NCBI GenBank assembly: GCA_963776345.1
Contig: CAVZMH010000015.1
Coordinates: 384,001-448,000 of the forward strand
Length of the DNA stretch: 64,000 bases
Source of the DNA: an uncultured delta proteobacterium
GTDB lineage: Bacteria; Myxococcota; Myxococcia; Myxococcales; Myxococcaceae
Direction: 5' to 3'
The stretch's first letter is position 1. Every line of letters starts with the position of its first letter. The position numbers and the translations under genes are program-made. Positions 49,485 to 54,699 of this stretch are shown here, in pieces. A model generated the notes under the pieces. It made no database searches and was not told the origin of the DNA. It saw only the letters and a list, made by a program, of their open reading frames with translations.

Positions 49485-51261
49485 TCAGCCCCTCGGCCGC
49501 GCTGGGCTGGCTCCGACCGGAGGCTGCGCGAGCACTCCCCGGACCGCCGCCGCGATGCCCTCGGCCGACAGGCCGATCGCCCGCCGCTGGGTCCGCGCAT
49601 CCCCGTGGGGCACCGGCGCGTCGGGGAGCCCGAGCGTCCGCACGCGCAGCAGGAGCCCGCGCGTCGCGGCCAGCTCGAGGACCGCGCTCCCGAGCCCCCC
49701 GTGCAGGGTCCCCTCCTCCACCGTGACCACGTGCCCCGTGGCGCAGGCCTCCAGCACTCGCGCGGCGTCCAGCGGGAGGACGCGCGCATCGAGCACCGCG
49801 GTCGGGATCTCGAGCGCCTCGGCGGCCTCCAGCGCGGCGAGCCCCAGCGGTCCGAGCGAGACGATCGCCGCGACGGCGCCCTCGGGCCGCCGCAGCCAGC
49901 GCGCGCCGGCGACCGGTCCGGACTCGACCTCGATCCGCGCCGGCGTGGTGGGCAGCGTTCCGCGCGGGAAGCGGAACGCCGCGGGGCCGGGACCCGCGAG
50001 CGCCGTCTCCAGCACCGGGTCCACGTCCTCGCCAACGGTGGGGGCGTACAGCCGCAGGCCGGGCAACGGCCGGAGCAGGGCCAGGTCGTACGTCCCCTGG
50101 TGCGTCGCCCCGTCGGCGCCCACCAGCCCCGCCCGGTCGACGGCGAAGGTGACCGGCAGCCCGGGCAGCACCACGTCGTGGATGAGCTGGTCCACCGCGC
50201 GCTGGAGGAAGGTGCTGTAGATGCAGACCACCGGCCGCAGCCCGCGGGCGGCGAGCCCCGCGGCGAGCGTCACCGCGTGCTGCTCGGCGATGCCCGCGTC
50301 GTGCACCCTGGACCCGAAGCGCGCCGCGAGCCCGGTCAGCGAGGAGCCCTCGAGCATCGCCGGGGTCACCACCACCACCCGCCCGTCGCGCTCCATCGCC
50401 CGGCCGAGCGCCGCGGCCACCGCATCGGACCAGGTGGGCTGGCCGTGCCGGCTGCGGACCAGCTTGCCGTCGCGCATCTCGTACGGGCCCATGGCGTGGC
50501 CGCGGGTGGCGACGTCCGCCTCCGCCTCGGCGAGCCCGCGCCCCTTCTCCGTCCGCACGTGGACCACGACGGGCCGGCGGCTCCGGCGCGCCTCGACCAA
50601 GCGCCGCCGCGAGCTCGCCGAGCGCGTGCCCGTTCACCGGCCCGAGGTAGGTGAAGCCCAGCGCCTCGAAGAAGGCGCCGGCCCCGCCCCCGGCCAGCAT
50701 CCGCGGCACCGCCCCGACGTTCTCCGAGATGGACATCCCGTTGTCGTTCAGCACCACCACCAGGGGGAGCCCGCTCGCGCCGGCGTCGTTCAGCCCCTCG
50801 AAGGTGAGCCCGCCGGTGAGCGCGCCGTCCCCCACGATGGCCACCGCCCGGCCCCCTGCCCCGGTGTGCGCCCGGGCGAGCGCCATCCCCAGCGCCACGC
50901 TCACCGCGGTGCAGGCATGCCCGGCCGGGAAGGCGTCGAACGGGCTCTCGCGCGGGTCGAGGAACGGCGCCACCCCGGCCTCCTGCCGGAGGGTGTGCAT
51001 CCGCGGGCCGCGGCCGGTGAGGAGCTTGTGCGCGTACGCCTGGTGGCCCACGTCGAAGACCAGGTCGTCGTCGGGCGCGTGGAAGACGCGATGGAGCGCG
51101 ACGATGAGCTCCACTGCCCCCAGCGACGCGCCGAGGTGCCCGCCCACCCGGCCGCAGATGGAGATGATCTCCTGGCGCAGCTCGGCACAGAGGCGCGGGA
51201 GCTCGTCCTCGGGCAGCGCGCGCACGTCCCTCGGCGACAGGACGCGCCCGAGCAGGGTCAC
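49485..51261 (-). CDS. dxs: 1-deoxy-D-xylulose-5-phosphate synthase; frameshift near 50600
   Basis: GGHLGASLG, FDVGHQAYAHK, GDGALTGG, LNDNGMSI, then in another frame TEKGRG, GIAEQH, YSTFLQRA, DRAGLVGADGATHQG. Confidence 0.94.
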
Positions 51262-52142
51262 GTGCTGCGCTCCACGCTGTAGCGGGCCAGCGCGGCCAGC
51301 GGGCCCGGTCTGGGCTCGAGCCCGCGCACCGCGGCCAGCGCCTCGTCCACCAGCGCCCGGGCACGCGCACGGGAGGCCTCGAGACCGAGCACCGCGGGGT
51401 AGGTGTGGCGCCCGGCAGCGGCGTCCGCACCGGTCGGCTTACCCATCGCCTCCGCCGAGGACGTCACGTCGAGCAGGTCGTCGGCGATCTGGAAGGCGAG
51501 CCCCACCGCGTCTCCGTAGCGTTCGGCCGCGGCCACCTGGTCGGGCGTGCCCCCCTCGGCGACGACGCCCAGCGTGCACGCCGCCCGGAGCAGCGCTCCG
51601 GTCTTCGCCCGGTGAAGCCGGGTCAGGTACGCCTCCTCGGCCGGGCGGTCCTCGGCGATGTCCAGCACCTGGCCGCCGACCATGCCCACCGCGCCGGCGG
51701 CCTGCGCGAGCCGCGACACCAGCTCCGCCCGCCGCGGCTCGGGCCCGGTGGCGAGCAGGGTGAAGGCCTCGGTGAGCAGCGCGTCGCCGGCGAGGATGGC
51801 CATCGCCTCGCCGAATACCTTGTGGCTGGTGGGCCGGCCGCGGCGGAGGTCGTCGTCGTCCATCGCCGGGAGGTCGTCGTGCACCAGGCTGTAGGTGTGG
51901 ACGTACTCGAGCGCGCAGGCCGCGTCCTCCGCCGCGGCGCCGGGCGCGCCGCCCCGGACCGCCTCGGCGAAGGCGAGGCAGAGCAGCGGGCGCAGCCGCT
52001 TCCCGCCGGCGAGCAGCGAGTACTCCATCGCCTCGACCAGCCGCCGGGGCGCGGCCTCCAGCCGCCGCAGCCGATCGGCGAGCAGCGACTCGACGCGCGC
52101 CCCGCGCGCCTGGAGCCATGCCTCGAGCTGGAAACCGCTCAT
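51258..52142 (-). CDS. ispA: Farnesyl diphosphate synthase / polyprenyl synthetase
   Basis: GGKRLRP, SLVHDDLPAMDDDDLRRG, GGQ, KT, FQIADDLLD. Confidence 0.93.
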   Translation of the reverse strand: MSGFQLEAWLQARGARVESLLADRLRRLEAAPRRLVEAMEYSLLAGGKRLRPLLCLAFAEAVRGGAPGAAAEDAACALEYVHTYSLVHDDLPAMDDDDLRRGRPTSHKVFGEAMAILAGDALLTEAFTLLATGPEPRRAELVSRLAQAAGAVGMVGGQVLDIAEDRPAEEAYLTRLHRAKTGALLRAACTLGVVAEGGTPDQVAAAERYGDAVGLAFQIADDLLDVTSSAEAMGKPTGADAAAGRHTYPAVLGLEASRARARALVDEALAAVRGLEPRPGPLAALARYSVERST

Positions 52143-52555
52143 GGCCGCAGCCCTCCCGACCGTCGCTCGACCAGCTCGCGCATCCGTCCGAGAAGCGCGT
52201 CGAGGTCGATGGGCTTGGTGAAGTAGCCGTCCGCGCCGGAGGCCAGCCCGGCCTCCACGTCCGCCCGGCCCTTCCGCGAGGAGACGAAGAGCACCGGCAG
52301 CTCGTGCAGCTGCTCGTTCCGCCGAAGCGCGCGGCAGAGCTCGAACCCGTCGATCCACGACATGTTGACGTCGAGCAGCAGGATGTCCGGCCGGTGCAGG
52401 TGGAGGCTGGAGATGAGCTTCACCCCGTTGGCGGCCTGGGAGACGTCGTAACCCTCGATCTCCAGGGCCATCGCCAGCATCTCCCGGGTGTCGCGATCGT
52501 CGTCGACGATGATCGCCGAGCGGCGAGGAGAGCCGTCAGAACGGGATGTCGTCAT
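52139..52555 (-). CDS. Single-domain response regulator
   Basis: IVDDD, LLDVNM, FVSS, FTKP. Confidence 0.9.
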   Translation of the reverse strand: MTTSRSDGSPRRSAIIVDDDRDTREMLAMALEIEGYDVSQAANGVKLISSLHLHRPDILLLDVNMSWIDGFELCRALRRNEQLHELPVLFVSSRKGRADVEAGLASGADGYFTKPIDLDALLGRMRELVERRSGGLRP

Positions 52556-52832
52556 CGTCGGTGCCCGTCGGAGCGGGCTTCGACGGCCCGCCCCGGGTGG
52601 GCTCGAGAGGGACGGTCCGGTCCCCGCCCTTGTGCTCCAGCAATTCCTGGACGCGGAGCTCGGCCTGCTGCAGCAGCGCCTCGCCCCGCTTCACCAGCTG
52701 GATGCCCTTCTCGAACTCCTCCAGCGAGTCCTCGAGGCTCAGCTGGCCCCCTTCGAGCTTCTTGACCACCTCCTCGAGGCGGTCCACGACGTCGCTGTAG
52801 CGCTCGCTGGGCTGCTCTTCTCGGGTGGCCAC
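52536..52832 (-). CDS. xseB: Exodeoxyribonuclease VII small subunit
   Basis: RLEEVVKKLEGGQLSLEDSLEEFEKGIQL...LQQAELRV; extra tail ending DDDDIPF. Confidence 0.93.
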   Translation of the reverse strand: MATREEQPSERYSDVVDRLEEVVKKLEGGQLSLEDSLEEFEKGIQLVKRGEALLQQAELRVQELLEHKGGDRTVPLEPTRGGPSKPAPTGTDDDDIPF

Positions 52833-52893: not shown

Positions 52894-54699
52894 TCAGTCT
52901 CCCGCTGCGGGTTCGACCCGGGTGATGGTGGCCTCGGCCTCGTCGCACTCCCCGAGCGAGGCGCGCCCGGGCGGCGCCCAGCGGAGCCGAACCGTCGCCC
53001 CGGGCTGCAGCTCGCCGGCGCGGCGGACCAGGTGTCCGTCGTCCGTGCGGTGGACGACAGCGTATCCGCGGGCCATCACCCGGAGCGGGCTCAGCCCGTC
53101 GAGCCGGCCGGCGTGCATCTGCACCGCCCCCTTCGCCTGGGCGAGGCGGGCCCGCGCCACCCGCTCGAGCCGGTGCCGCGCCGAGACCAGGGCCGCGCCC
53201 TCGAGCCCGAGCCGCGCCCTCTGGACCTCGGCCAGCCGCCAGCGCAGCCGCTCCAGCCGCGCCCGGCGCTCGCCGAGCAGAGCCTCGGGGCGGAAGCGCT
53301 CCAGCCGGCCGCGCAGCTCCATCAGCCGCCCGCGCTCGCCCCGGAGCCGCTCGGTCCACAGCCGGCCGAGCGTCCGCTCCTGCTCGATGAGCCCGTGGCG
53401 GCAGCGGGTGACCTCCTGGCGCGGGTCGCGCAGCCGCCGCTCGTGCTGCCGGAGGCGCTCGCGAGCTCGCGCCACGGCGCCGCCGACCGCCTGCCGGAGC
53501 CGGGTACGTGCAGTCCGGAGGTCGTCGAGCAGCGCCTCCCGCTCCGGCGCGAGCAGCTCGGCGGCTGCGCTGGGAGTCGGCGCGCGCGCGTCGGCGACGA
53601 AGTCGGCGATGGTGAAGTCCACCTCGTGGCCCACCGCCGAGACCACTGGCACCGGGCTGGCGGCGATCGCCCGCGCCACGGCCTCCTCGTTGAACGTCCA
53701 GAGGTCCTCGGCGCTGCCTCCTCCGCGCGTGACGACGATGACGTCCACGTCGGTGCGCGCGAGCCGCTGGAGCGCCCGGACCACCTCGTCCGTCGCCCCG
53801 GGGCCCTGGACCCGGGCGTGGCAGAGAAGCACGGAGAGTCGCGGGTTGCGCCGGTGGAGCACGTGGAGGAAGTCTTGGAGCGCCGCACCCGAGCGGCTGG
53901 TCACCACGCCGATGCGCCGGGGCAGGAACGGCAGCGGCCGCGGAGGTCGGAGCCGGTTCTCGCCCATCAGCCCCTCGGCGATGAGCCGGTCCCGGAGCTG
54001 GGCGAAGGCGATCGCCAGGGCGCCGGCGCCGGACGGCTCGATGCGCTGGACGATGAGGTTGTACTGGCCAGCCTTCTCGTACACGTCGAGGTTGCCCTCG
54101 GCGACGACCTCCATCCCCTCTTCCAGGCGGAACCGGAGGCGCTGGACGACGCTGGCCCAGATCTTCACGTCGATGGAGGCGCCGGCGTCCTTGAGCTTGA
54201 AGAACAGGTGGCCGCTGGCGTGAGGCCCCCGGAAGTTGCTGACCTCCCCGCGGACCAGCACCCGGCGGAACCCCTCGACCAGCACGCCCTTCACCGCCTG
54301 GGTGAGCTCGGTGACGGTGAGCACGATTCGCTCGGGCGGCCGCGCGGCCGGGGTGGCGGCGGGCGTCTCGATGCGCACCACCTCGGTGGTGGAGGTCCAC
54401 CGGACGGCCGCTCCCCGCTCCCGCGGTCGCGACGGCGTGAGGTCGACGCGGACGGTCTCGCGGCTGACGGCGAGCTCGGTGCGGGGCTCGGGCTCGAGCG
54501 GCTCGACCTGGCCCCTCGACCGCGCGAGCCGCGGCGGCGGACCGACCGCGGGCGGCTCGACGTCCGGCGGCGGACCGGGAGCTCGCGGCGCTGCGGCCGG
54601 CGTCGCGGGCCTGCGCTCGACCCGGGCCTCGGGCTGACCGAAGAGGTCCCCCTGCTGCGTCGAGGGCGCGGACGGGACGAGGCTCTTGACCTTCTTCAT
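52894..54699 (-). CDS. xseA: Exodeoxyribonuclease VII large subunit with long Pro-rich N-terminal extension
   Basis: LTVTELT, GEVSNF...SGHLFFKLKD, RGGGSAEDLWTFNEE, SAVGHEVD, RAPTPSAAAE, LSPLRVMARGY. Confidence 0.95.
   Translation of the reverse strand: MKKVKSLVPSAPSTQQGDLFGQPEARVERRPATPAAAPRAPGPPPDVEPPAVGPPPRLARSRGQVEPLEPEPRTELAVSRETVRVDLTPSRPRERGAAVRWTSTTEVVRIETPAATPAARPPERIVLTVTELTQAVKGVLVEGFRRVLVRGEVSNFRGPHASGHLFFKLKDAGASIDVKIWASVVQRLRFRLEEGMEVVAEGNLDVYEKAGQYNLIVQRIEPSGAGALAIAFAQLRDRLIAEGLMGENRLRPPRPLPFLPRRIGVVTSRSGAALQDFLHVLHRRNPRLSVLLCHARVQGPGATDEVVRALQRLARTDVDVIVVTRGGGSAEDLWTFNEEAVARAIAASPVPVVSAVGHEVDFTIADFVADARAPTPSAAAELLAPEREALLDDLRTARTRLRQAVGGAVARARERLRQHERRLRDPRQEVTRCRHGLIEQERTLGRLWTERLRGERGRLMELRGRLERFRPEALLGERRARLERLRWRLAEVQRARLGLEGAALVSARHRLERVARARLAQAKGAVQMHAGRLDGLSPLRVMARGYAVVHRTDDGHLVRRAGELQPGATVRLRWAPPGRASLGECDEAEATITRVEPAAGD

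Follow-up and report, generated by a model that had tools for sequence, protein, structure and literature searches.

An SSB-type C-terminal tip on the small subunit of exonuclease VII in myxobacteria

Introduction

The C-terminal tail of bacterial SSB (MDFDDDIPF in E. coli) consists of a variable, unstructured linker, three or four acidic residues and a free [IV]-P-F end (PMC7145534, PMC5872125). The isolated E. coli tip peptide was reported to bind RecO, PriA, PriC and chi without help from the linker, and the addition of six residues to the tip abolished RecO binding (PMC7145534). In the pockets described for SSB partners, an Arg is paired with the terminal carboxylate (PMC5872125). A dissenting review holds that the partners are bound by the SSB linker and not by the tip (PMC7290993). 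The tip is usually regarded as a handle proper to SSB, and as a target for antibiotics.

Exonuclease VII (ExoVII) of E. coli was described as XseA4.XseB24 (PDB 8TXR), with disordered XseB C-termini; each XseA has an arm that exceeds 20 nm in length and is lined by six XseB (PMC10835039). Why a long arm coated with XseB should carry the catalytic domains is a question that the structure paper does not settle, and a word search of its text and supplement gave no hit for SSB, clamp or Myxo (PMC10835039). A link between ExoVII and SSB has been described in B. subtilis, where XseA purifies together with SSB and its foci at forks depend on the SSB C-terminus (PMC3000357). ExoVII is thus tied to the SSB-tail network at forks in that species, but as a client of the tail; in the locus studied here, ExoVII carries the tail. 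The closest precedent in print is the DDDIPF C-terminus of prophage DUF669 proteins, an SSB-type tip outside PF00436 that was proposed to be a mimic (PMC13687109). Those proteins are themselves ssDNA-binding proteins of mobile elements, whereas XseB belongs to a core nuclease encoded on the chromosome. Short clamp motifs of the type QL[S/D]LF, and the RecB-clamp link, illustrate a short Q-x-D-L-F sequence in a repair nuclease (bioRxiv 2025.08.20.671105). In searches of the open full-text literature, a body that mostly leaves out subscription journals, no hit was seen to describe an SSB-type tip on XseB or a clamp motif on XseA.

Results and discussion

The small subunit and its tail

We analysed a window of 64,000 nucleotides from an uncultured member of the Myxococcaceae (assembly GCA_963776345.1, contig CAVZMH010000015.1, positions 384,001 to 448,000). 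Its ExoVII genes stand at the head of the order xseA, xseB, receiver-domain gene, polyprenyl synthetase, Dxs-like gene and S4-FtsJ methyltransferase. The Dxs-like gene, which we take to be such from its motifs, is broken into two frames near 50600 (window 49485-51261) by one extra base relative to four intact relatives; the split is probably an assembly error. The small subunit gene and its parts are as follows.

52536..52832, minus strand: xseB, exonuclease VII small subunit, 98 aa (PF02609; profile match to E. coli XseB)
52632..52799, minus strand: helical hairpin of XseB, residues 12-67 (AlphaFold2)
52560..52604, minus strand: added Pro/Gly/Ala linker of XseB, residues 77-91, varying in length and sequence among relatives
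52536..52559, minus strand: SSB-type acidic tip DDDDIPF and stop codon of xseB, giving a free C-terminal Phe

PF02609 covers residues 13-62 of the protein (E 4.9e-16; 58.9 bits against a curated cut-off of 24), and the family profile matched E. coli XseB (8txr) with E 3.3e-21. The same Pfam search gave no match of XseB to PF00436, the SSB OB fold. In the AlphaFold2 model, helices span residues 12-28 and 33-67, with pLDDT of about 94 over the hairpin (12-67), and the chain beyond residue 67 has no secondary structure (pLDDT 51-57).

The initial annotation of this DNA had described a Pro/Gly linker after the XseB coiled-coil, ending DDDDIPF-stop. Translation of the minus-strand ORF agreed: the C-terminus reads ...RTVPLEPTRGGPSKPAPTGTDDDDIPF-stop, i.e. 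...TDDDDIPF-stop, with the tip codons at 52539-52559 and the stop codon at 52536-52538. The linker is present but had been drawn too long, because its RTVPL part (residues 72-76) aligns with the normal terminus of E. coli XseB. Residues 72-76 are therefore the ordinary end of the family, and the added part comprises residues 77-98, a 15-residue linker plus the tip. E. coli XseB stops right after this match and has no linker-plus-tip.

The XseB tip fits the SSB C-terminal pattern, an acidic run followed by [IV]-P-F at the chain end, borne on an unstructured and poorly conserved linker. Like the SSB tail, the XseB tail should also be present in several copies per oligomer. It differs in sitting on a helical nuclease subunit without an OB fold, and its linker is shorter (about 15-30 residues, compared with 56 in E. 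coli SSB).

Rarity of the tip in the genome

The initial annotation had proposed that the XseB tail be compared with the SSB tail of the same genome, and the two match. The single SSB, encoded on another contig, ends ...AEDDIPF, so the last five residues (DDIPF) are identical in both proteins. Among 54,035 stop-closed segments of the whole genome (six frames, at least 40 aa), only these two end in [DE][DE][IVLM]PF, and the composition-based expectation of such ends was 0.026 among about 4,851 likely genes.

We also compared the two tips in relatives. All 27 intact main SSBs (27/27) end in D[IV]PF. The XseB tips were mostly DVPF and the SSBs of the same relatives mostly DIPF, so the tips of the two proteins do not follow each other closely. 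A recent copy from the ssb gene was considered as well, since the final 18 nt show no difference in this genus; yet these are common codons, and in other genera the 18 nt differ, with V in XseB and I in SSB. Recent copying from ssb to xseB was therefore unsupported.

Conservation of the tip among relatives

Genome and locus sets used for the following counts may overlap, and related genomes are not independent. An acidic-[IVL]-[PA]-F tip was found on XseB in 24 of 30 genomes (the genome itself and 29 relatives). All 18 members of its own family, itself included, had the tip, as did 6 of the 12 members of the order outside the family, one of these six with a DIAF and one with a DPVPF end. A phylum sample of 151 genomes gave 147 with a match, from which 88 loci were read (28 new best-scoring ones and 60 hand-chosen across families). 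Here the tip was present in 24/25 members of the own family, in 1/8 other members of the order and in 1/55 outside the order. The sole tip-less member of the own family is a 2.7-Mb genome, which also lacks the XseA motif and the long arm described below. The initial proposal had been made to depend on conservation of the tail in related XseBs, and such conservation was found at the level of the family (18/18 and 24/25). Even samples of two other phyla gave 0/30 and 0/30.

Named loci showed the same picture, and named relatives put the organism of the window within the Myxococcaceae or close to them. From 507 loci 80 were kept, and among the best 47 of these 80 all 44 stop-closed XseBs were tipped (44/44), in genera that include Archangium, Corallococcus, Pyxidicoccus and Myxococcus; at named loci with non-myxobacterial sequences the tip was found in 0/29. 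M. xanthus AM003 has an XseB ending EDDVPF and also carries the XseA motif, which offers a genetically tractable species. One tip-bearing locus (L145) is titled as a Bacillaceae genus. It fell with myxobacterial family f3 (98% SH-aLRT) and was thus left out as a Firmicute case. Among 150 library representatives, 64 XseBs were tipped, although the search profile was biased towards the tip. About nine of the tipped XseBs among these 150 are distant ones. Distant XseBs with acidic-x-PF ends on unlike linkers (P0092, P0101, P0111, P0115, P0120, P0124, P0125, P0138, P0145, P0165) are perhaps independent gains.

Overlap with the receiver gene

The gene that follows xseB raises the question of whether the tail is functionless, as a by-product of gene overlap or a neutral extension.

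52139..52555, minus strand: stand-alone receiver-domain gene (PF00072), with its probable ATG inside the xseB tip codons

In this genus, the only one in which this was seen, the receiver gene has its start among the tip codons and overlaps xseB by 20 nt (-20 nt), as would be expected of such a by-product, and the tip is missing in several families (none was seen on the XseBs of f4, f6 and f8). However, outside this genus the next gene begins at or after the xseB stop and the tip is still present. Within the genus the overlapping receiver frame varies (MTTSRS, MTTFHS, MTTSPS) but DDIPF is constant. In three genomes of the genus (L010, L020, L021) the receiver gene has decayed or lost an internal part, and both the overlapping start and the XseB tip remain. 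Absence of the overlap elsewhere, variability of the second frame and retention of the tip beside broken receiver genes together argue that selection acts on the peptide. An origin of the tip as an overlap artefact was rejected, as the tip outlasts both the overlap outside the genus and the decay of the receiver gene, and a functionless tail is very improbable. Among relatives, in rows picked for having a tip, the linker varies freely in length and sequence (linker positions 1.9-3.2 bits), and the tip and stop codons change synonymously. On these comparisons, the XseB tip is a real, selected and lineage-specific variant of exonuclease VII, for which we infer a function below.

The large subunit

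54699 marks the ATG of xseA that we placed by comparison with relatives; the features of the gene are as follows.

52894..54699, minus strand: xseA, exonuclease VII large subunit, 601 aa (PF02601, PF13742; ATG at 54699 inferred from relatives)
54640..54654, minus strand: QGDLF, putative sliding-clamp-type motif, XseA residues 16-20 (conservation in relatives)
53095..53547, minus strand: helical arm of XseA (approximate limits), 22 residues longer than that of E. coli, with probably one more XseB site

The gene lies immediately upstream of xseB, and its product has OB-fold and catalytic domains (PF02601, PF13742) and matches 8txr_A with E 6.4e-82. Homologous subunits, a helical XseB, an OB fold, a catalytic domain and an arm whose length changes by about 22 residues per step are thus shared with E. 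coli ExoVII. E. coli XseA differs in beginning at the OB fold. The XseA studied here has about 120 low-complexity residues before the fold, with QGDLF near their start, about 105 residues ahead of the fold; neither this 120-residue stretch nor QGDLF occurs in E. coli XseA, which also has an arm shorter by one step.

The motif Q-x(1-2)-[DSG]-L-[FL] or GDLF was found in XseA at 63 of 65 assessable tail-bearing loci at 9 of 13 tail-less order-level loci and at 0/10 non-myxobacterial named loci. As the pattern by itself is common in the genome (Q.[DS]LF occurs 33 times among 25,470 segments), the evidence for a clamp-type motif in XseA is its conservation across variable linkers of 10 to 290 residues. 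Position 2 is Gly in the window and in most relatives, and Leu, Ala, Val or Phe in some. QGDLF therefore deviates from the revised clamp consensus as reported, which has an aliphatic residue there (bioRxiv 2025.08.20.671105), and the putative motif of XseA differs from known clamp motifs also in its N-terminal position on a long linker. In other families of the phylum, QLPLGL, QLPLTF, QVDLF and MDLF were seen ahead of the XseA OB fold.

The arm measured 133, 155, 178 or 200 residues between fixed motifs. These steps of about 22 agree with the description of XseB sites in ExoVII as quantised (PMC10835039). The initial annotation had stated that ExoVII carries several XseB copies per XseA, which the XseA4.XseB24 structure bears out (PMC10835039). 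With an arm of 155 residues, 22 more than in E. coli, the XseA of the window would hold about seven XseB. The predicted number of tips is then about 7 per XseA, 14 per dimer and 28 per tetramer if the assembly is as in E. coli, compared with 4 on SSB. The arm of M. xanthus (178) implies about eight XseB per XseA. Arms of at least 150 residues were found at 76 of 78 tail-bearing loci, compared with 6 of 58 tail-less loci. Co-evolution of tip and arm length was nevertheless not significant on a 105-row XseA tree (5 changes, 3 independent pairs), from which 37 near-duplicate or redundant loci had been excluded, with 6 of 142 arms unmeasured.

Possible docking within the enzyme

Because the tip peptide binds on its own and the XseB C-termini are disordered and spaced along the arm, the tips are likely to be exposed. 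One place where they might dock is XseA itself, in an SSB-tip pocket or on the DNA face of the OB fold, damping the nuclease until DNA or SSB displaces the tip. Several reports are in line with this: B. subtilis XseA depends on the SSB C-terminus as described above (PMC3000357), the SSB tip was reported to bind SSB's own DNA-binding domain (PMC7145534) and XseA has an OB fold, and ExoVII was described as autoinhibited (PMC10835039). However, we found no Arg or Lys position in the XseA head that families with the tail share and families without it lack (37 vs 12 sequences). With six XseB spread over more than 20 nm of arm, a 15-residue linker should leave most tips far from the nuclease head, which, judging from the E. 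coli structure, would be within reach of only one or two neck XseB copies; the distant tips would be free for other proteins. An electrostatic shield, moreover, would need just an acidic tail, whereas the [IV]PF end is conserved exactly. When the XseB tail (69-98) was modelled together with residues 123-601 of XseA from a 41-row alignment, the score was 0.00, which weighs neither way. We regard docking on XseA as unlikely.

The tips might instead bind the OB fold of SSB and help to strip SSB off ssDNA for entry of the nuclease. The DNA-binding domain of SSB is reported to bind the acidic tip (PMC7145534), and ExoVII to require sterically open ssDNA (PMC10835039). But the contact of tip and OB fold was described for DNA-free SSB, and as stronger with short linkers in cis (PMC7145534). 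Among the alternatives to recruitment that assume a function, SSB stripping seems to us the least probable.

Proposed recruitment of SSB partners

As XseB bears a conserved copy of the SSB tip, ExoVII probably works as a many-tipped recruiting rod. By analogy with SSB, the XseB tips are likely to be bound by any protein of the cell that binds the SSB tip. The clamp-type motif of XseA would hold the nuclease on DNA, at nicks, gaps and forks, and the XseB tips would capture helicases, restart or recombination proteins where ExoVII destroys the ssDNA of SSB. Recruitment, most usefully of an unwinding enzyme, would then be what selection keeps. We consider a clamp-tethered, many-tipped ExoVII that recruits SSB-partner repair enzymes to be the best reading, and hold it with moderate confidence; the binding itself is predicted from sequence. 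Against recruitment, the tip is dispensable in many relatives: half of the 12 members of the order from other families have none (6 of 12), and families f4, f6 and f8 have tip-less XseBs, in f8 together with a tip-less helicase. If the reading is true, a housekeeping nuclease has several times more tips than SSB and the handle is shared, which raises the question of how SSB and ExoVII split their partners. The XseA arm would be a display rack, a possible answer to why it is long.

The genome encodes RecO, PriA, RecJ, one RecQ-family helicase and the clamp (dnaN). Pol III chi and ExoI were not found in this genome, which is 98% complete. The SSB-tip pocket of E. coli RecQ lies in its RQC domain. 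No such domain was found by Pfam search in the genome's only RecQ-family helicase (C20:53816-54844, L250), in which an HTH insert precedes the zinc domain. In PriA, a His aligns with the position of Arg697 of K. pneumoniae PriA, with an Arg one place off; the reference position was taken from PMC4129139, with a tag offset of 16 deduced from chain lengths. The alignment of RecO stopped short of its C-terminal part. The partners named in the initial annotation (chi, ExoI, RecQ and PriA) thus appear to fit poorly here. RecQ was also rejected as a co-occurring partner, being present in 28 of 29 genomes, tipped or not. A longer, canonical-type RecQ match was best in the tail-less family f7 and the tail-less f1 genome but likewise in tail-bearing f5, which gave no clean pattern. 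In several relatives, the gene for RecQ of the type found in this genome is a few kb away from ssb.

Further tip-bearing proteins

A pattern scan for SSB-type tips in 30 genomes, with 41 places read, revealed a second enzyme. In family f7 the XseB tip was found in 0/8, yet a UvrD/PcrA-like helicase (PF00580, PF13361) was tipped in 6/8 (L269, L270, L299, L307, L308, L309), with the ends GGDDVPF, GGEDVPF, GDDEVPF and GGDLPF. A P-x-L-F motif occurs shortly before the tip. Homologues of the UvrD-like helicase outside f7 were tipped in 0/14, of which one shows no more than 42% likeness and is perhaps a paralogue; the f8 homologue had no tip. At E 1e-100, no helicase match was found in 11 of the 30 genomes, the genome of the window among them. 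The tipped helicase of a family with tip-less XseB argues for recruitment.

It also bears on the possibility that the XseB tips are a decoy or sink, competing with SSB for its partners and so restraining recombination or restart while ExoVII works. Their identity to the SSB tip and the high predicted valency (14-28 per complex) would suit a decoy, and every SSB partner whose pocket is intact should be able to bind them, judging from the peptide binding reported (PMC7145534). A tipped helicase, however, suits recruitment better than titration. In addition, xseB, a housekeeping gene, is present in one copy and belongs to a conserved operon, and a permanent sink for essential partners should be costly. 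We therefore think a decoy rather improbable.

Returning to recruitment, we tentatively propose, at somewhat less than even confidence, that a clamp-anchored ExoVII rod with 14-32 tips is a second genome-maintenance hub beside SSB, holding SSB partners at lesions once the ssDNA is gone. The SSB tip would then be a movable tag, attached to one repair enzyme or another according to the myxobacterial family: to XseB in one and to the UvrD-like helicase in f7.

In a locus of another phylum (L331, from the phylum of G170), XseB ends GGGQGSLF, a clamp-type motif where the myxobacterial XseB has the SSB tip. Together with the tips on XseB, the f7 helicase and other proteins, this ending suggests that replisome docking tags may have been gained repeatedly at the free ends of repair enzymes in these bacteria.

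Other occurrences of the tip were recorded in the same scan. A small myxobacterial protein of about 160 aa without a Pfam match, with the motif FP-x-YGRS-x-G...DLE[YF]YA and a Pro-rich linker, ends DD[IV]PF or DEIPF (PPP-x-DD[DE][IV]PF-like) at four loci (L275, L281, L287, L296); the copy in the genome of the window (C1:27336-27803) ends EEEQF. A Cas2 protein (PF09707; L265, G041) ends SDDVPF, and a 222-aa frame without a Pfam match (L298, G025) ends SDDIPF. One genome (G130) has two SSB paralogues (L291 and L302), both tipped.
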